Source: Candidatus Multivorans sp. (GTDB lineage: Bacteria; Acidobacteriota; Thermoanaerobaculia; Multivoradales; Multivoraceae). From it: a DNA stretch of 64,000 nt. The DNA lies in the NCBI GenBank assembly GCA_965224025.1, contig OZ245033.1, positions 288,001-352,000 on the forward strand, written 5' to 3'. The notes beneath the pieces are model-generated. The model ran no database searches. It was not told the DNA's origin and saw only the letters and a list, made by a program, of their open reading frames with translations. A program made the position numbers and the translations under genes. How positions within the stretch are numbered: the first letter of the stretch is position 1; every line of letters starts with the position of its first letter. Below are positions 1-11,793 of the stretch, piece after piece.

Positions 1-847
1 GAGTCTCTACCACCAGGCGCGCAAGAGGACTTACTACGAGGCGCGGCGGCTGTTCGCGGAGGCGATCGAGCTCGATCCGGCGTACGCCCTGGCTCACGCG
101 GCGTCCGCGCACTGCTCCGCGTATCTCTACCTGTTCCACGAACCGAGCGAGGACAACCTCAGACTCGCCGACGAGTCGAGTTCGCGAGCCCTGGAGCTGG
201 CGCCCGAGGTCGCGGAGGCGCACTCGGCGAGGGCGATGACACTCAGCACCAACGGCCGGCTGGAGGAGGCCGAAGTCCACTTCCGGCGCGCCTTGGAACT
301 CGACCCGCTGAGCTTCGAGGCGAACCACAACTTTGCCCGTCACCGCTTCGCCCAGGGCCGGATGGAGGAAGCGGTCACGTTCTTCTTCCGGGCCATCGAA
401 GCCGATCCGACGGCTTACGCCCCCTGCTCCATCTGCACCGCGGCTCTGGCGGCGCTCGGCCGGACTTCTGAAACGGCTCGGCTCCAGGAGCTCACGCAGG
501 CCAGGGTGCAAAGGCGCCTGTTGCGCTACCCCGACGACCAGCGCGCGCTCTACCTGGGCGCGGTCAATCTCGCCCGCGACGGTCGGACGGACGAGGCCCT
601 GGAGTGGGCCGCGCGGGCGGAGGCCCTGGATCCCCAGGATGCCGTGGCGCTCTACAACCTGGCCTGCGTGGCGGCCGTGTGCGGCGATGCGGATGCCGGG
701 CTCCGGTACCTGGAATCGGCAGTGAGGCATGGTTACCCGCACCTGCGCTGGATCGAGAACGATGCCGACTTGGCGGCGCTGCGGGCGGATCCGCGGTTTG
801 GGGAGGTGGTGGCGGGGCTGCGGGGGGCGGCGCGGGCTGCTGGCTGA
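1..847 (+). CDS. TPR-repeat protein, C-terminal part (5' end outside window); resembles TPR tails of TolB-like kinase/adenylate cyclase proteins
   Basis: Frame open from nt 2 (SLYHQARKRTYYEARRLFAEAIELDPAYALAH...); repeated A-x-E-L-D-P TPR motifs; C-terminal 'YNLAC...DADLAALRADPRF' cap. Confidence 0.8.
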   Translation, partial: SLYHQARKRTYYEARRLFAEAIELDPAYALAHAASAHCSAYLYLFHEPSEDNLRLADESSSRALELAPEVAEAHSARAMTLSTNGRLEEAEVHFRRALELDPLSFEANHNFARHRFAQGRMEEAVTFFFRAIEADPTAYAPCSICTAALAALGRTSETARLQELTQARVQRRLLRYPDDQRALYLGAVNLARDGRTDEALEWAARAEALDPQDAVALYNLACVAAVCGDADAGLRYLESAVRHGYPHLRWIENDADLAALRADPRFGEVVAGLRGAARAAG

Positions 848-873
848 CTGTCGGTGCGCCGGCCACTGGATGC

Positions 874-1035
874 GCCGCCCACTGGGCGCGCCGGCCTTCT
901 GGCCGGCTGCCGCCGGAGGCGGCCAAGCGACAGCACCGGCCGCAGGCCGGTTCCATCCGGCAAACGGCCCCAACGAACTTCGGGCTCGCCGCTTCGCGGC
1001 ATCGCGCCCAATGCCGGCCAGAAGGCCGGCGCACC
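874..1035. repeat. REPIN-like inverted pair of REP palindromes; right REP interrupted by IS110 copy 1
   Basis: cactgggcgcgccggccttctggccggc (880-907) is the inverse of gccggccagaaggccggcgcacc (1013-1035) plus cagtg (2746-2750); the IR extends to ccgcccactg/cagtgggcgg across the IS. Confidence 0.85.
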
Positions 1036-1099
1036 TGTACCTTTCTCGGGTGGATTCTGGTGGGTCGTTGAGAGAGGTGGAATCGACCAGTAGCCGTCG

Positions 1100-1196
1100 C
1101 GGCTGCGGTAGCTGTGGGAAACCGGCTTGCCGGTTTTCCAAGGTCCGGCGGGAAACGGTCTGCCGTTTTCCGCGGGACCGGCAGCTTCCGCAGCCG
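1100..1196 (+). ncRNA. Structured three-way-junction element in IS110 left end, function unknown
   Basis: Stems cggctgcgg/ccgcagccg and agctg/cagct enclose hairpins tgggaaaccggc/gccggttttcca and ggtccggcgggaaacgg/ccgttttccgcgggacc; G-U pairs favour the + strand. Confidence 0.5.
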
Positions 1197-1244
1197 GGAC
1201 CGCCGGTCGGTTTCGTTTCCGGCCTGCCGGAGTCACTGAAGGAA

Positions 1245-1401
1245 GGTCGGCAAGCAGCCAGGAGCGACCACCGGCGCACTGTGCTTCGAGCACCTGGCTG
1301 GGACCCGTGCCCTGGCTGCTTCGCCGCGTTGGACGCCCAGTGGAGAGTCAGTGCCTTAGAGCACCAGTACAGGTACGGGCAGGCAACGCGGCATGCCGAC
1401 C
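1245..1401 (+). ncRNA. Bridge RNA of IS110 copy 1 (target-binding and donor-binding loops; exact ends unknown)
   Basis: Stem 1252-1262/1311-1321 encloses CCGGCGCAC (1271-1279, left target) and CTGGG (1298-1302, revcomp of CCCAG). Stem 1323-1331/1384-1392 encloses GTGGAGAGTC (1340-1349, right IS end) and GTACAGG (1367-1373, revcomp of CCTGTAC). Confidence 0.9.
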
Positions 1402-1435
1402 AGGCAACACTACCGCAAGGGAGAAGGAGGACGAG

Positions 1436-2689
1436 ATGACCAGGACGTGGTTCGTCGGCGTGGACTGGGGGTCCGAGACCCACCACGTGTGTGTGCTGGA
1501 TCGGGACGGCAAGGTGAGGGGGGAGCGGGCGTTCGACCACAGCGGCAAGGGACTTGCCGCCATGGCCGACTGGCTCCTTGGACATACCCGACCGACGTCT
1601 CCGGACGAGATCGGCGTCGCCATCGAGGTGCCGCACGGACCGGTGGTCGAGACTCTCCTGGAGCGGGGTTTCGCCGTCCATTCGATCAACCCCAAGCAGC
1701 TCGACCGCTTCAGGGACCGCTTCTCCGTCGCCGGCGCCAAGGATGACCGCCGCGATGCACGGGTGCTCGCCGCCGCGCTTCGCACCGACCCCGAGTGCCT
1801 GAACCGCGTGCAACCATCCGATGCCGCCATCGTCATGCTGCGCGAGGTGTCCCGCGCCCGCAAGCAGTTGGTCAACCAGAAGAACCGCCTGGAGAACCAG
1901 GTCCGCGACCAGCTCTGGCGCTACTACCCGCAGTTTCTCGCCGTGGTCAAGAACGAGGTGTCGGCGCCCTTCGCGCTGGCCTTGTGGCGACTGGCGCCGA
2001 CCCCCGGCAAGGCTCGACGGCTGCGCGAAGCCACGCTCGCCAAACTGCTCAAGGAACACCGCATCCGGCGCCTGACCTCCGCCCAACTGCGCGATCAACT
2101 GCGGGCCGAGCCGATCGCCGTTTCCCCGGACACCGTTAAGGCCGCCGTCGAACACATAGGACTCCTCCGGCCGGTGCTCGACACCGTCTGCCGCCAACTC
2201 GCCGACGCCGACAAGCGGCTGGAGCGGATGACCCGCGCACTCGAGGCCCCGGCCCAACGGGAAAACGACGACGACTCCCCTAAGCCGAGCGACGCCGCCA
2301 TCCTCAGGTCGCTGCCCGGACTCGGCAAGGTCGGCCTCGCCACCCTGCTCTCCGAGGCCGATCAAAGCCTGGGCCGCAGAGACCACGAGGCACTGCGTTG
2401 CCTCTGCGGAGTGGCGCCGGTGACCGTCAAGTCCGGCAAGAAGCTCATCGTCATGCGACGACTCGCCGCCAACGAACACCTCAGCGACGCCGTCTATCAC
2501 TGGGGACGAGTCGCCATCGAGCATGACCCGATCAGCCGCGCCAAGTACGACGCCATGAAAGCCCAGGGAAAGACGCACGGACGCGCCATCAGACAACTCG
2601 TCGACCGACTCCTCGGCGTCGCCTGCGCCATGCTCCGAGACCGAACTCTCTTCGACCCCAACAAGCGATGCCATGCCCAGGTCGCATGA
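1436..2689 (+). CDS. IS110-family DEDD recombinase/transposase (417 aa)
   Basis: AGGAGG RBS before MTRTWFVGVDWG; RuvC-like D (GVDWG), E (AIEVP), DD (KDDRRDA); Tnp-domain serine loop GVAPVTVKSGK. Confidence 0.95.
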   Translation: MTRTWFVGVDWGSETHHVCVLDRDGKVRGERAFDHSGKGLAAMADWLLGHTRPTSPDEIGVAIEVPHGPVVETLLERGFAVHSINPKQLDRFRDRFSVAGAKDDRRDARVLAAALRTDPECLNRVQPSDAAIVMLREVSRARKQLVNQKNRLENQVRDQLWRYYPQFLAVVKNEVSAPFALALWRLAPTPGKARRLREATLAKLLKEHRIRRLTSAQLRDQLRAEPIAVSPDTVKAAVEHIGLLRPVLDTVCRQLADADKRLERMTRALEAPAQRENDDDSPKPSDAAILRSLPGLGKVGLATLLSEADQSLGRRDHEALRCLCGVAPVTVKSGKKLIVMRRLAANEHLSDAVYHWGRVAIEHDPISRAKYDAMKAQGKTHGRAIRQLVDRLLGVACAMLRDRTLFDPNKRCHAQVA

Positions 2690-2724
2690 CCTCCCTGACC
2701 CGCAGCAGCCTCCCCAAAACACAC

Positions 2725-2745
2725 TTGCTAAAGGGTGGAGAGTCC
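2725..2745 (+). promoter_or_regulatory. -35 half (TTGCTA) of an IS circle-junction promoter
   Basis: Joining right end to left end through CC gives TTGCTA-aagggtggagagtcctg (17 nt)-TACCTT; identical in copy 2 (10580-10600). Confidence 0.65.
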
Positions 2746-2823
2746 CAGTGGGCGGAGCTTGCGCACCCTGCCTCGTCACAGGCACACTCACGCTTCACAC
2801 GAACAGCTCGGGGGGCGGAGCGG

Positions 2824-3603
2824 ATGCTGGAACTTGGACTTGAGGGCAGGGTGGCGATCGTCACCGGCGGCAGCGAGGGGATGGGGCTCGCGACGGCGCG
2901 CCGCCTCGTTGGCGAGGGCGCGCGCGTCGCGATCTGCGCGCGGCGGGCGGAGAACCTGGAGCGGGCCGCCGACGAGTTGCGCGCGGCGGGCGGCGGCGAG
3001 GTCTTCGCCCAGCCCGCCGACGTGACCTCCGCGGCCGACGTCGACCGCTTCATCGACGCGGTGACCGCCGAGTTCGGCGGCGTCGACATCCTCGTCAACA
3101 ACGCCGGCGCGTCGGCCGCGCAGGGCCTCGAATCGCTCGACGACGACGCCTGGCTCGCGGACATCCAGCTCAAGGTGATGGGTGCGGTGCGTTTCTGCCG
3201 GGGCGTCGTGCCCTCGATGCGCAAGCGCGGCGGCGGTTCGATCGTCAACGCGACGATCGGGGGCGGCAAGGCGGCGCCGGCGCGGGCGCTGCCGACCAGC
3301 GTCACCCGGGCCGCCGGCATCAACCTGACCAAGTCGCTCGCCAACGAACTGGCCGCCGACAACATCCGCGTCAACACGATCTGCATCGGCCTGATCAAGA
3401 GCGACCAGTGGGTGCGCCGGGCGACGGGCCAGGGCGTCGAGGTCGAGTCGATCTACGAGGCGATGGGCAAGCGCGTCCCCCTGGGCCGCGTCGGCGAGGC
3501 GGAGGAGTACGCCGACCTGATCGCGTTCCTGGTCTCGGAGCGCGGCGCCTACATCACCGGCGCGTCGATCAACCTGGACGGCGGGCTGTGTCCCGTCGTG
3601 TGA
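2824..3603 (+). CDS. Short-chain dehydrogenase/reductase (SDR)
   Basis: VAIVTGGSEGMG, DILVNNAG, NIRVNTICIG, ITGASINLDGG; catalytic YxxxK replaced by TSVTR, as in some atypical SDRs. Confidence 0.9.
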   Translation: MLELGLEGRVAIVTGGSEGMGLATARRLVGEGARVAICARRAENLERAADELRAAGGGEVFAQPADVTSAADVDRFIDAVTAEFGGVDILVNNAGASAAQGLESLDDDAWLADIQLKVMGAVRFCRGVVPSMRKRGGGSIVNATIGGGKAAPARALPTSVTRAAGINLTKSLANELAADNIRVNTICIGLIKSDQWVRRATGQGVEVESIYEAMGKRVPLGRVGEAEEYADLIAFLVSERGAYITGASINLDGGLCPVV

Positions 3604-4713: not shown

Positions 4714-5742
4714 ATGAAGCGACCACAGGACCACCTCTCCCGCCCTGGCAAAGCGCACGTCCTACTGGGTGCGCCGGCCTTCTGGCCGGCTTCTGAAAGA
4801 ACGCCGCCGCGAAGCGGCGTCCGCGGTCGGCCGCGGCGCGAAGGACAACCAAGCGTTCCGGGTAGCGGATTCCGCCTAAGGGCGGATGCCGGCCAGAAGG
4901 CCGGCGCACCCAGTGGCGGAATGGCGGCTTTCCTCCTGCTCTGCCTCACCTGCCCGCTCCTAGTCGCCGCCTGCGCCGCCCCGCCGCCCGAGGGAGCGGC
5001 CGCTCCCGTCACCCCCGACGACGTCGCCAACTGGCGCGCAATCGACCTCAGCCACTCCTACGGCGACACCACGCTCTACTGGCCGACCGACACCAGGGGC
5101 TTCGACCTCGAGACCCTCGCCGAGGGCCACACGGACGCCGGCTACTTCTACGCCGCCAAACAGTTCGCGACCACCGAGCACGGCGGCACCCACCTCGACG
5201 CCCCCGTCCACTTCGCCGAAGGCGGCGACGACGTCGCCTCGATCCCGCTCGACCGGCTGATCCTGCCCGGCATCGTCGTCGACGTCACCGCACAGGCGGC
5301 CGCCGACCCCGACTACCTGGTGACCGCCGCGGATATCGGCGCCTGGGAAGAGCAGCACGGCCCGGTGCCGGCCGGCGCCGCCGTCCTCATCCGCACCGGC
5401 TGGCCGGACCGCTGGCCCGACGTCCTCGCCTACCTCGGCGACGACACTCCGGGAGACGCGAGCAACCTCCACTTCCCCGGGGTCGGCGAGGACGCAGCCC
5501 GCCTGCTGATCGAAGAGCGGGGCATCGGCATGCTCGGCATCGACACCGCCAGCGTCGACTACGGCCAGTCGACCGACTTCATCGTCCACCAGATCGGCGG
5601 CGCCGCCGGCGTCCCCAACCTGGAGAACGTCGGCGACCTGTCGGAACTGCCGGAGACCGGCTTCCTGCTCGTCGCCCTGCCGATGAAGATCGAGGGCGGC
5701 ACCGGCGCACCGGTGCGGATCGTGGCGCTGGTTCCGCGGTAG
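4714..5742 (+). CDS. Cyclase-family (kynurenine formamidase-like) metallohydrolase lipoprotein; in-frame REPIN in N-terminus (alternative start 4921)
   Basis: HGGTHLDAP metal motif, GIDTASVD, LENV, GGTGAPVRIVA; lipobox LVAAC; AGGAGAG RBS before ATG 4714. Confidence 0.85.
   Translation: MKRPQDHLSRPGKAHVLLGAPAFWPASERTPPRSGVRGRPRREGQPSVPGSGFRLRADAGQKAGAPSGGMAAFLLLCLTCPLLVAACAAPPPEGAAAPVTPDDVANWRAIDLSHSYGDTTLYWPTDTRGFDLETLAEGHTDAGYFYAAKQFATTEHGGTHLDAPVHFAEGGDDVASIPLDRLILPGIVVDVTAQAAADPDYLVTAADIGAWEEQHGPVPAGAAVLIRTGWPDRWPDVLAYLGDDTPGDASNLHFPGVGEDAARLLIEERGIGMLGIDTASVDYGQSTDFIVHQIGGAAGVPNLENVGDLSELPETGFLLVALPMKIEGGTGAPVRIVALVPR
4764..4914. repeat. Intact REPIN-like inverted REP pair (two unoccupied IS110 target sites)
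   Basis: actgggtgcgccggccttctggccggc (4764-4790) and gccggccagaaggccggcgcacccagt (4888-4914) are perfect 27-bp inverted repeats. Confidence 0.9.
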
Positions 5743-8835: not shown

Positions 8836-9099
8836 GCGGCTGCCGCTGGTGCGGCGGCGCCCGGAATGCCGGCCAGAAGGCCGGCGCACCTGTACCTTTC
8901 CGGGATGCATTCTGGCGTGTCGTTGAGAGAGGTGGAATGGACCAGTAGCCGTCGTGGCTGCGGTAGCTGTGGGAAACCGGCTTGCCGGTTTTCCAAGGTC
9001 CGGCGGGAAACGGTCTGCCGTTTTCCGCCGGGCCGGCAGCTTCCGCAGCCGAGACCGCCGGTCGGTTGCGTCTCCGGCCTGCCGGAGTCACTGAAGGAA

Positions 9100-9256
9100 A
9101 GTCGGCAAGCAGCCAGGAGCAACCACCGGCGTACTGTGCTTCGAGCACCTGGCTGGGACCCGTGCCCTGGCTGCTTCGCCGCGTTGGACGCCCAGTGGAG
9201 AGTCAGTGCCTTAGAGCACCAGTACAGGTACGGGCAGGCAACGCGGCATGCCGACC
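9100..9256 (+). ncRNA. Bridge RNA of IS110 copy 2
   Basis: Same two-loop architecture as 1245-1401; left target guide is CCGGCGTAC (9126-9134). Confidence 0.9.
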
Positions 9257-9290
9257 AGGCAACACTACCGCAAGGGAGAAGGAGGACGAG

Positions 9291-10544
9291 ATGACCAGGA
9301 CGTGGTTCGTCGGCGTGGACTGGGGGTCCGAGACCCACCACGTGTGTGTGCTGGATCGGGACGGCAAGGTGAGGGGGGAGCGGGCGTTCGACCACAGCGG
9401 CAAGGGACTTGCCGCCATGGCCGACTGGCTCCTTGGACATACCCGACCGACGTCTCCGGACGAGATCGGCGTCGCCATCGAGGTGCCGCACGGACCGGTG
9501 GTCGAGACTCTCCTGGAGCGGGGCTTCGCCGTGCATTCGATCAACCCCAAGCAGCTCGACCGCTTCAGGGACCGCTTCTCCGTCGCCGGCGCCAAGGATG
9601 ACCGCCGCGATGCACGGGCGCTCGCCGCCGCGCTTCGCACCGACCCCGAGTGCCTGAACCGCGTGCAACCATCCGATGCAGCCATCGTGATGCTGCGCGA
9701 GGTGTCCCGCGGCCGCAAGCAGTTGGTCGGCCAGAAGAACCGCCTGGAGAACCAGGTCCGCGACCAGCTCTGGCGCTACTACCCGCAGTTTCTCGCCGTG
9801 GTCAAGAACGAGGTGTCGGCGCCCTTCGCGCTGGCCTTGTGGCGACTGGCGCCGACCCCCGACAAGGCTCGACGGCTGCGCGAAGACACGCTCGCCAAAC
9901 TGCTCAAGGAACACCGCATCCGGCGCCTGACTGCCGCCCAACTGCGCGATCAACTGCGGGCCGAGCCGATCGCCGTTTCCCCGGACACCGTTAAGGCCGC
10001 CGTCGAACACATAGGACTCCTCCGGCCGGTGCTCGACACCGTCTGCCGCCAACTCGCCGACGCCGAAAGGCGGCTGGAGCGGATGACCCGCGCACTCGAA
10101 GCCGACCTCTCCCGGGAAAACGACGACGACACGCCCAAGCCGAGCGACGCCGCCATCCTCAGGTCGCTGCCCGGACTCGGCAAGGTCGGCCTCGCCACCC
10201 TGCTCTCCGAGGCCGATCAAAGCCTGGGCCGCAGAGACTACGAGGCACTGCGTTGCCTCTGCGGAGTGGCGCCGGTGACCGTCAAGTCCGGCAAGAAGCT
10301 CATCGTCATGCGACGACTCGCCGCCAACGAACACCTCAGCGACGCCGTCTATCACTGGGGACGAGTCGCCATCCAGCACGACCCGATCAGCCGCGCCAAG
10401 TACGACGCCATGAAAGCCGAAGGCAAGACACACGGACGAGCCATCAGACAACTCGTCGATCGACTCCTCGGCGTCGCCTGCGCCATGCTCCGAGACCGCA
10501 CTCTCTTCGACCCCAACAAGAGAAGCCATGCCCAGGTCGCATGA
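9291..10544 (+). CDS. IS110-family DEDD recombinase/transposase (417 aa), copy 2
   Basis: Intact DEDD and Ser motifs; substitutions versus copy 1 are concentrated in the linker (EADLSRENDDDTPK vs EAPAQRENDDDSPK). Confidence 0.95.
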   Translation: MTRTWFVGVDWGSETHHVCVLDRDGKVRGERAFDHSGKGLAAMADWLLGHTRPTSPDEIGVAIEVPHGPVVETLLERGFAVHSINPKQLDRFRDRFSVAGAKDDRRDARALAAALRTDPECLNRVQPSDAAIVMLREVSRGRKQLVGQKNRLENQVRDQLWRYYPQFLAVVKNEVSAPFALALWRLAPTPDKARRLREDTLAKLLKEHRIRRLTAAQLRDQLRAEPIAVSPDTVKAAVEHIGLLRPVLDTVCRQLADAERRLERMTRALEADLSRENDDDTPKPSDAAILRSLPGLGKVGLATLLSEADQSLGRRDYEALRCLCGVAPVTVKSGKKLIVMRRLAANEHLSDAVYHWGRVAIQHDPISRAKYDAMKAEGKTHGRAIRQLVDRLLGVACAMLRDRTLFDPNKRSHAQVA

Positions 10545-10600
10545 CCTCCCTGACCCGCAGCAGCCTCCCCAAAACACACTTGCTAAAGGGTGGAGAGTCC

Positions 10601-10675
10601 CAGTGCCGGAATGCCGGCCGGAAGGCCGGCGCACCCAGTGCCGGAATGCCGGCCGGAATGCCGGCGTACCCAGTG
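10601..10675 (+). repeat. Tandem 35-bp REP units (unit 1 = 8861-8890 plus 10601-10605, unit 2 = 10606-10640, unit 3 = 10641-10675)
   Basis: ccggaatgccggccRgaaKgccggcgYacccagtg repeated three times once the IS is removed. Confidence 0.85.
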
Positions 10676-10677
10676 AT

Positions 10678-11793
10678 CTACCGCAGTTCGGCGGTCTTGT
10701 TGCGCTCGATCAGGTCGAAGTCGATCTCGACTCCGAGGCCCGGGGCCATCGGGGCGTGGACGTAGCCCTCTGAATCGACCTCGATGTCTTCGACGAGGCC
10801 GTACTTCTGCGCGGCCGCCGGCAGCAGGACCTCGAACCACTCGCAGTTGCGGATCGCGGCGCTGATGTGCAGGTGGGCGACGTTGTTCAGCGAGTTGCCG
10901 CCGTGGTGGATCTCGAAGTTCATCCCGAAGCCCTCGGCCAGGTGGGCCGCCTTGAGGCAGCCGGTGATGCCGCCCTTGAGCGCGACGTCGCCGCGCAGGT
11001 AGTCGGTCGCCTGGTTGTAGATCCACGGCGCGAACGAGTCGTACCAGGCGCCGGGGAACTCGGTCGCCATGATCGGAATGCGAAGCTGCTGGCGCAGCTT
11101 CGTGTAGTTGTAGATGTCCTGGTCGCCCAGGGGATCCTCGTACCACTCGAAGTCGAGATCCTCGATCAGCTTGCCGACCCGTAGCGCCGAGGGGTAGTCG
11201 TAGCCCCAGGTCGAATCGAGCATCAACGGGAAACCGTCGCCGACCGCCTCGCGGACGGCCTTGCAGATCCGCATGTCGTCCCGCCAGACGCGGAACGGGT
11301 GGATCTTGTAGCCCTGCCAGCCCGCGGCCTGGTACGACTTGGCCTGCTCGACGTAGGCCTCGACATCAGGCTGCTGCTCGGAGCTGGCGTACGCGGGCAG
11401 CTTCTCCCGGTACGTCCCGAGCAGCCGGTGAACAGGCTCCCCCGCCGCCTTGCCGGCGATGTCCCAGAGCGCCACGTCGACGGCGCCGACCACCCAGGGC
11501 TGGACGACCAGCCGCCGCTCCAGCATCTCCTGGTAGAGCTGCTCACGGGCCAGCGGGTCGCGGCCCATCACGATCGGTTTGAGCATCCGCAGCAGGGTCC
11601 GTGCGGTCATGCTCGTCCCCATGCCGAGGAACGAATGGCCCTCGACTCCGTCGTCGGTACGGATCGTCACCAGGCCGAGTTCGCCTGTGCGGTTCGGCTG
11701 GCCGGCCGGGTCGAACGGCCCGCGTCCCAGGTAGGAGTGCGGCGGAATGTCGTTCCAGGCGAAGAGGGTGATGCTGAGGTCGTCGATCTTCAT
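10678..11793 (-). CDS. Mandelate racemase/muconate lactonizing enzyme family (enolase superfamily)
   Basis: GAVDVALWDIAGKAAG, YKIHP, LMLDS, WYEDP, IMATE, FEIHHG, APGLGVEID. Confidence 0.92.
   Translation of the reverse strand: MKIDDLSITLFAWNDIPPHSYLGRGPFDPAGQPNRTGELGLVTIRTDDGVEGHSFLGMGTSMTARTLLRMLKPIVMGRDPLAREQLYQEMLERRLVVQPWVVGAVDVALWDIAGKAAGEPVHRLLGTYREKLPAYASSEQQPDVEAYVEQAKSYQAAGWQGYKIHPFRVWRDDMRICKAVREAVGDGFPLMLDSTWGYDYPSALRVGKLIEDLDFEWYEDPLGDQDIYNYTKLRQQLRIPIMATEFPGAWYDSFAPWIYNQATDYLRGDVALKGGITGCLKAAHLAEGFGMNFEIHHGGNSLNNVAHLHISAAIRNCEWFEVLLPAAAQKYGLVEDIEVDSEGYVHAPMAPGLGVEIDFDLIERNKTAELR

Follow-up and report, generated by a model that had tools for sequence, protein, structure and literature searches.

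Bridge RNAs are a feature of insertion sequences of the IS110 group. In the passages of Durrant et al. (2024, PMC11208160) on their distribution they are predicted in 85.7% of IS110-group elements and are said to have "diverse structures". The same paper and earlier work already report repetitive extragenic palindromic (REP) sequences as targets of IS110 elements, and they define bridge RNAs by a characteristic pattern: the guides covary with the flanking target DNA and the donor guides remain fixed. For the closest described system, IS621 of Escherichia coli, the sections of Hiraizumi et al. (2024, PMC11208158) on the RNA complex give a 177-nt RNA with a 5′ stem-loop, a target arm at 34-98, an 11-nt linker and a donor arm at 110-177, at the 3′ end. 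They also describe a composite active site made of the D-E-D-D and Ser residues, and handshake bases next to the right guides, whose pairing with the partner DNA follows the exchange of strands. Here, we analyzed a 64,000-nt stretch of the genome of Candidatus Multivorans sp. (contig OZ245033.1, positions 288,001 to 352,000, forward strand; hereafter the window). An earlier reading of its letters, the original prediction, had proposed that it carries an IS110 bridge RNA programmed against the host's own REP palindrome. Judged by its sequence, segment 1036-2745 of the window is an active-looking, multi-copy insertion sequence (IS) of the IS110 group. We consider it very probable that 1245-1401, in the non-coding left end (LE) of this element, encodes the core of a bridge RNA of functional type.

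The recombinase places the element in this family. Its 417-aa protein contains both IS110 domains, PF01548 (E = 9.6e-35, residues 7-165) and PF02371 (E = 2.4e-12, residues 288-371), and reached 177.2 bits with the NCBIfam equivalog NF033542, "IS110 family RNA-guided transposase" (cutoff 140). The only matches among solved structures were the transposases of IS621 (8wt6, E = 7.6e-12) and ISCro4 (9t56, E = 4.3e-10). The residues D10, E64, D104, D107 and S333-G334 aligned with D11, E60, D102, D105 and S241-G242 of IS621, the PDB chain numbering being offset by 2 in this alignment. The terminal layout also fits the IS110 group: the LE is 400 nt long, the right end (RE) is 54 nt long, terminal inverted repeats are absent, and CC stands on both sides in all 14 complete copies of the host genome. 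Every string and coordinate of the original prediction was present in the window, and its description of an IS110 recombinase ortholog with a CC core, a 417-aa protein and both RNA arms in one multi-way junction was borne out.

The predicted RNA structure is a three-way junction from which two arms with internal loops extend. Both arms and the closing stem appeared in the minimum free energy (MFE) fold of 1235-1410, which has an energy of -85.1 kcal/mol (z = -3.14); none of 200 shuffled sequences was equally stable. In each arm, a basal stem leads to a large internal loop and, at the tip, to a small hairpin. Twenty-two non-redundant RNA regions were aligned with MAFFT and scored for covariation, using the structure of the original prediction with an inner GCC/GGC helix added. 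In this alignment, 90.1% of the cells pair, compared with 31-39% when the partners are slid by one to three columns. Fourteen of the 39 pairs changed on both sides, and the covariation score was reached by none of 500 shuffles. The basal helix of the target arm was 93.8% paired, with 6 of its 11 pairs changed on both sides; helix 4, in the donor arm, was 92.9% paired, with three such pairs. The closing helix was the weakest (74.7% paired, partly through alignment indels); its compensatory pairs and its presence in single-sequence MFE folds are given in Table 1. The claim of two internal-loop arms closed by ggtcggc/gccgacc is therefore supported by the fold and by the covariation.

The loops of these arms carry the proposed guides. 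In the original prediction, one loop matches both sides of the insertion site and the other matches the circle junction of the element. We found the target and circle-junction matches, although the right target guide is not just CTGGG. The internal-loop segment 1294-1302 reads CUGGCUGGG, with CTGGG at 1298-1302, and we take the guide to be GGCUGGG instead, 7 nt that follow a conserved CU linker and pair with CCCAG(T/C). In the window, the target guides amount to 9 nt on the left, and to five Watson-Crick pairs and one wobble on the right. The right target and right donor guides span both Cs of the core, and the left target and left donor guides the first C only. The second core position faces U1280, where a G.U wobble is possible, and A1350. 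The left target guide spans both core bases in many orthologs from Vicinamibacterales.

We compared these matches with 5000 composition shuffles. The summed longest guide matches were 32 nt, which was reached by a single shuffle. The individual matches were found more often: the left-target 9-mer in 211 shuffles, the right-target match in 3288 and the 7-nt right-donor match in 600. In the window sequence alone, the four matches are thus only moderately beyond chance, and the right-target match by itself is not significant. Because such single-sequence matches are only moderately improbable in GC-rich DNA, the case rests on comparison, that is, on the copies within the genome and on covariation among orthologs.

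The relatives came from a scan of one genome per species, which gave 178 stretches; the results reported here rest on the best 80 of them. The proteins of these 80 loci were 56-93% identical to the recombinase of the window element: 66-93% in Candidatus Multivorans and other Thermoanaerobaculia, and 56-59% in Vicinamibacterales. Outside these groups, the clade had one copy in an Azospirillum genome and one in a gammaproteobacterial metagenome-assembled genome. Wherever the ends were located, the loci shared the CC core, an LE starting with TGTAC and an RE finishing with GTGG[AG][AG]AGT. With the window, the set comprised 81 loci, of which 76 were parsed automatically into 21 guide classes and nine target superclasses. 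The pattern failed for L041, L066, L067, L079 and L096; by eye, L041 and L066 obey the rule, and in L067 and L096 the 5′ half has diverged. The window represents the target class GCGCA-CC-CAG. Those of Vicinamibacterales include GGGGTC-CC-TTTTC, GCGATC-CC-ATTTG, GATAGC-CC-TTGTC, TTCGTC-CC-CTCCC, GTGGACG-CC-TCCCC and GCGGAT-CC.

Across these classes, the target guides followed their own flanks. The left guide was identical to its flank at 72 of 81 positions, compared with a mean of 44.5 after permutation, and none of 20,000 permutations was as good. For the right guide, one of 20,000 permutations matched the observed agreement. There were two weak cases, the left guide of L095 (6/9) and the right guide of L094 (2/7). 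The latter arose because the first of two candidate right ends had been taken; the second (CCTCCTC) matches 7/7. The donor guides and the element ends were nearly constant across orthologs, whereas the target guides varied with the flanks. A genome found with the RNA model outside this sample (G088, three copies) added a tenth target class, in which the guide ACAGTCCCC equals the left flank at 9/9 positions. The donor-loop handshake position covaried with the target as well. The base after the right donor guide was the Watson-Crick partner of the core-adjacent target base in 75 of 76 loci (A:U 32, C:G 39, G:C 4), the remaining one being a G.U pair. The dinucleotide directly 3′ of the right target guide was AC in 72 loci and AU in four, complementary to the invariant donor GT. 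The original prediction had named covariation between guide columns and flanking targets in homologous elements among its own checks, and the result agrees with it. Its assignment of target and donor loops of the IS621 type also held, since the layout is that of Durrant et al., with target guides that covary and donor guides that are fixed.

These results bear on two rival explanations. One is that the guide matches are chance resemblances in GC-rich sequence, as the shuffle counts for the single matches might suggest. The rarity of the summed match and the position of the guides in internal loops of a structure with covarying stems both speak against it. Because of the guide-flank permutation test and the stem covariation, a chance origin is refuted, and we regard its probability as negligible. 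The other is that the LE structure is a cis-regulatory leader acting on translation of the recombinase or on transcript stability, and that the matches are subterminal repeats of the DNA read by the protein. The structure does lie directly upstream of the ribosome-binding site (1424-1430), the MFE fold of the whole LE pairs 1041-1047 with 1421-1427, and subterminal inverted repeats are used by IS1111 relatives, according to the definition of that group in PMC11208160. However, when the pairing of the 5′ end with the ribosome-binding site was compared with that in shuffled sequences, the share at least as stable ranged from 0.013 to 0.99 and exceeded 0.05 in 21 of the 22 representatives, and the compensatory stem changes are those expected of an RNA. 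Moreover, the loop bases follow the host flanks over nine target classes, with little change in the protein or the ends of the element; repeats in the DNA ends cannot explain this. A leader of this kind seems extremely unlikely, and a bridge RNA remains the reading that we prefer.

The host genome (5.14 Mb, 67.6% G+C) was searched with a covariance model of the RNA. There were 16 matches, every one within a copy of the window IS: 14 copies had both ends, one had the left end only and one was a fragment. The left flanks read GCCGGCG[C/T]ACC in all 15 readable copies. All 14 right flanks began with CC; the next three bases were CAG in 13 of them and CGG in the other. The uninterrupted 14-mer CCGGCG[CT]ACCCAG occurred at 44 empty sites, compared with about 1.8 expected for the C form, and the occupied form of the target at 17 sites. 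A hairpin, GCCGGC-loop-GCCGGC, is common to the target sites, and GCACCCAGT comes after it. Insertion is immediately 3′ of this hairpin, and the left target overlaps its 3′ arm. The target consists of the tail and the 3′ arm of a REP-like hairpin that is repeated in the host, and the shared hairpin makes "REP-like palindrome" a fair description.

One may also ask whether the element and its RNA are relics, that is, whether the copies are immobile and the guide matches are leftovers. Some copies are indeed damaged: one is frameshifted (C1:2021057), three are truncated (C1:5045408, C1:13182 and C1:4322521) and two have internal deletions in the LE. In addition, neither the empty-site joint (1035-2746) nor the RE-LE circle joint was found in the contigs of four public runs over 500-3300; because short contigs break at repeats, this result is uninformative. 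Nevertheless, the 417-aa protein was identical and intact in four copies (the others were 96-99% identical, with a few frameshifted or truncated), and the DNA identity of most copies was 98.6-100%. The catalytic residues are intact, 44 targets are still unoccupied, and related genomes hold the same IS at different sites. We consider it very unlikely that the copies are relics.

Several observations besides the missing joints weigh against a working bridge RNA in the window. None of the runs listed as containing this DNA is recorded as RNA, an outcome that speaks neither for nor against expression. A search of 900-2900 against Rfam 15 on both strands gave best E values of 2.7-10, with every hit far below its gathering score. 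In the MFE fold, there is partial pairing between the left and right target guides, 1271-1278 with 1295-1301 (CCGGC with GCUGG and CA with UG); in this model, the target loop would be closed in the free RNA. In this lineage, a leader of about 200 nt, including a 190-nt hairpin, separates the presumed start from the RNA core, and there is none like it in IS621. The putative junction promoter (TTGCTA/TACCTT) is weak by consensus, and its -10 hexamer overlaps the donor site. In the window element, the two core bases are not both paired by all four guides. In the three G088 copies, the handshake base is not complementary to its partner (A opposite C). Finally, the guide base 1277 is polymorphic within the genome (C in 11 of 16 copies, U in 5), and it is only loosely linked to C or T in the target: the letter was the same in 10 of 15 copies, three had a G.U wobble and two a C.A mismatch. 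This loose linkage is compatible with an RNA acting in trans and gives no evidence of tracking. Contigs from the public metagenomes (the same four runs) also show C>T at 1277, as well as G>T at 1296.

If the element works as IS621 does, the following course may be proposed. The element would be excised as a circle in which the RE, CC and the LE are joined. The junction would bring TTGCTA and TACCTT to a distance of 17 nt and so create a promoter that transcribes the LE. A tetramer of the 417-aa DEDD/Ser recombinase would bind both arms of the RNA, and in target and donor alike the guides would pair with both DNA strands around CC. Cleavage by S333 would follow, and the strands would be exchanged at CC, with the handshake bases 1303-1304 and 1374 stabilizing the exchanged state. 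The expected product is a scarless insertion flanked by CC.

Table 1. Features of the IS110-group element and of its surroundings, in window coordinates.
Feature	Position	Strand	Basis or remark
Left target, non-core part CCGGCGCA	1026-1033	+	3′ arm and tail of REP-like hairpin
CC core dinucleotide, left copy	1034-1035	+	Flank reads ccggcgca-CC, then tgtac (1026-1040)
Non-coding LE, 400 nt, begins TGTAC	1036-1435	+	Sequence and genome copies
TACCTT, possible -10 of a promoter formed only at the circle junction	1038-1043	+	Inferred; in the joined circle, 17-nt spacing to TTGC[AT]A of the RE
Long branched 5′ leader hairpin, about 190 nt	1049-1237	+	MFE helices
Closing stem P0, 5′ strand ggtcggc	1245-1251	+	MFE; 3/7 pairs changed on both sides; in single-sequence MFE of 18/22 orthologs
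Target-binding arm	1252-1321	+	Basal stem 1252-1262 with 1311-1321; apical hairpin 1281-1293
Left target guide CCGGCGCAC	1271-1279	+	Identical to top strand left of insertion site; 1277 C or U among copies
Right target guide GGCUGGG	1296-1302	+	Reverse complement of CCCAGCC; target CC-CAG-T/C
Target-loop handshake-like AC	1303-1304	+	Complementary to donor GT just upstream of core
Donor-binding arm	1323-1392	+	Basal stem 1323-1331 with 1384-1392; inner GCC/GGC; apical hairpin 1351-1364
Left donor guide GUGGAGAGUC (DNA GTGGAGAGTC)	1340-1349	+	RE end and first core C; 10 nt
Right donor guide GUACAGG	1367-1373	+	Reverse complement of CC+TGTAC (core and LE start); 7 nt
Donor-loop handshake-like U	1374	+	Complementary to A1033, the target base just left of core
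Closing stem P0, 3′ strand gccgacc	1395-1401	+	MFE, covariation
Shine-Dalgarno-like AAGGAGG, 5 nt ahead of ATG	1424-1430	+	Read from sequence
Recombinase gene, 417 aa and stop	1436-2689	+	Predicted catalytic D10, E64, D104, D107, S333-G334
Non-coding RE, 54 nt	2690-2743	+	TTGCTA 2725-2730 (possible -35); left donor GTGGAGAGT 2735-2743
CC core, right copy	2744-2745	+	gtggagagt, then CC-cagt (2735-2749)
Right target CAGTG	2746-2750	+	Sequence; genome right flanks
Second full IS copy in the window	8891-10600	+	Bridge RNA about 9092-9263; genome C1:296891 onward

The LE contains more than the RNA core. Its whole fold has a z score of -9.2. In Vicinamibacterales orthologs, the LE is about 232 nt long and a short stem-loop stands in the place of the long leader hairpin. 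The middle of the hairpin (1088-1211) is about 87% identical to segments outside the IS110 copies, at C1:3672584, 2474161, 4048787 and 1301954, and these extra segments adjoin an IS21-like repeat (IstB-type ATPase). The IS copies at C1:598850 and C1:3855042 are without 80-90 bp of the same module. From these sequence comparisons, 1088-1211 has the look of a small hairpin module, mobile or recombining, that is nested within the LE. The possibility that such pieces belong to a second IS110 family was rejected, as tblastn found no other IS110 paralog in the genome. Masking of the ribosome-binding site (1421-1427) by 1041-1047 was also considered and rejected; the duplex energies were no better than those of composition shuffles in the 22 representatives.

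TTGC[AT]A, a 17-nt spacer across the core and TACCTT were present in 18 of 18 ortholog representatives, although this conservation is confounded with that of the donor recognition sequence. A promoter scan found no sigma-70-like site within the linear element. A terminator scan found three terminator-like sites, near the shuffle expectation of 1.2.

The second full copy in the window is 97% identical to the first and sits in the same target; in its left target guide, the seventh base is U rather than C. Tandem REP-like hairpins follow it (within 8891-10700), with two more empty targets at C1:298657 and C1:298692. Further REP-like copies with the GGCCGGCGCACC motif occur on both strands, at 853-864, 4768-4779, 4899-4910 and 10624-10635. 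In total, the window has 13 matches to this motif with at most one mismatch, compared with 2.7 expected.

Some loci differ from the common layout. In three distant relatives found with the RNA model (L104 and L107 of genome G017, and L103 of genome G035; about 1353-1700 in locus coordinates), the homologue of the target arm has no match to the left flank, and the sequence identical to that flank, GCGCACTCC or ACCGCACTCC, is found in an extra arm upstream in the LE. This layout may be a three-arm RNA or a duplicated target arm. In L095, on an Azospirillum canadense contig, the RE is followed directly, at about 2610, by CC-TGTACC, which resembles an LE start. It could be a tandem copy, a remnant of a junction or a target that mimics the donor.

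The element is a clean natural case of bridge-RNA guidance in Acidobacteriota, with many copies and many empty targets in one genome. In nature, its relatives have come to use at least 10 different target sites with the donor guides and the handshake logic intact, and they lend independent comparative support, from a distant lineage, to the IS621 model, including the handshake position. For annotation, it accounts for a repeated 1.7-kb element and for its seat in REP-like hairpins. The special interest that the original prediction attached to this RNA was overstated, given how widely bridge RNAs are predicted in the passages of PMC11208160 cited above. As a candidate tool, a CC-core ortholog with a differently closed RNA scaffold could be tried beside many other orthologs; its potential is not obviously better than theirs. 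The clade may already be listed in the ortholog catalogues of Durrant et al. (2024) or Perry et al. (2025). Our full-text literature search found no paper on a CC core in an IS110 bridge RNA, and CC cores may stand in supplementary ortholog tables. It is possible, though we rather doubt it, that the clade is a distinct structural subclass, marked by a closed three-way junction with a 1-nt linker, a CC core whose second base may be left unpaired by the left guides, and lineage-specific expansions of the leader. If so, its target classes, at least 10 of them natural, would be a ready-made reprogramming series; and should the closing stem hold the two arms in a fixed geometry, the preference for cis or trans action or the directionality could differ from IS621.

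Among the described systems, the IS1111 group with its seekRNA (Siddiquee et al. 2024, PMC11187229) shares a DEDD recombinase guided by an RNA that matches both target strands. By the definition of that group given in PMC11208160, however, the RNA lies downstream of the gene, the RE is long and there are subterminal inverted repeats of 7-17 bp, whereas the window element has an RE of only 54 nt and its RNA in the LE. ISPpu10 of Pseudomonas putida, as presented by Na et al. (2026, bioRxiv 10.64898/2026.03.19.712850), also inserts into many copies of one intergenic repeat, and the GC-rich stem-loop of that repeat lies 5′ of the guided site; its host belongs to another phylum, and its target sequence is different. 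ISCro4/IS622 (Perry et al. 2025, bioRxiv 10.1101/2025.05.14.653916; PDB 9t56) shares the protein family and the two-loop logic of the RNA. It is closely related to IS621, has a CT core and has been shown to be active in human cells.

According to PMC11208160 and PMC11208158, the window element and IS621 share a DEDD RuvC-like domain and a Tnp domain with a catalytic Ser-Gly, an RNA encoded in the LE upstream of the gene, and the order of the guides together with the DNA strand that each guide matches. They also share two pseudo-symmetric internal-loop arms (about 70 nt in the window element, 65 and 68 nt in IS621), a dinucleotide core at both sides, the handshake positions and a REP-type target; the candidate -35 and -10 hexamers of the window element are likewise split between the RE and the LE. 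The protein is distant in sequence, its match to the IS621 structure extending over two segments, and it has 417 aa rather than 326, with about 90 extra aa between the two domains. The core is CC rather than CT. The arms stand 1 nt apart in a conserved 7-bp closing stem, whereas IS621 has its 11-nt linker. Pairing of the core by all four guides is strongly preferred in IS621, but the left guides of the window element match the first core base only. Lastly, the window element has a 400-nt LE with a 190-nt hairpin before the RNA core. As diverse structures, REP targets and target stem-loops have already been reported, these differences make it at most a modest variant. The element is therefore a real but ordinary new addition to the family of bridge-RNA recombinases, with no new mechanism.

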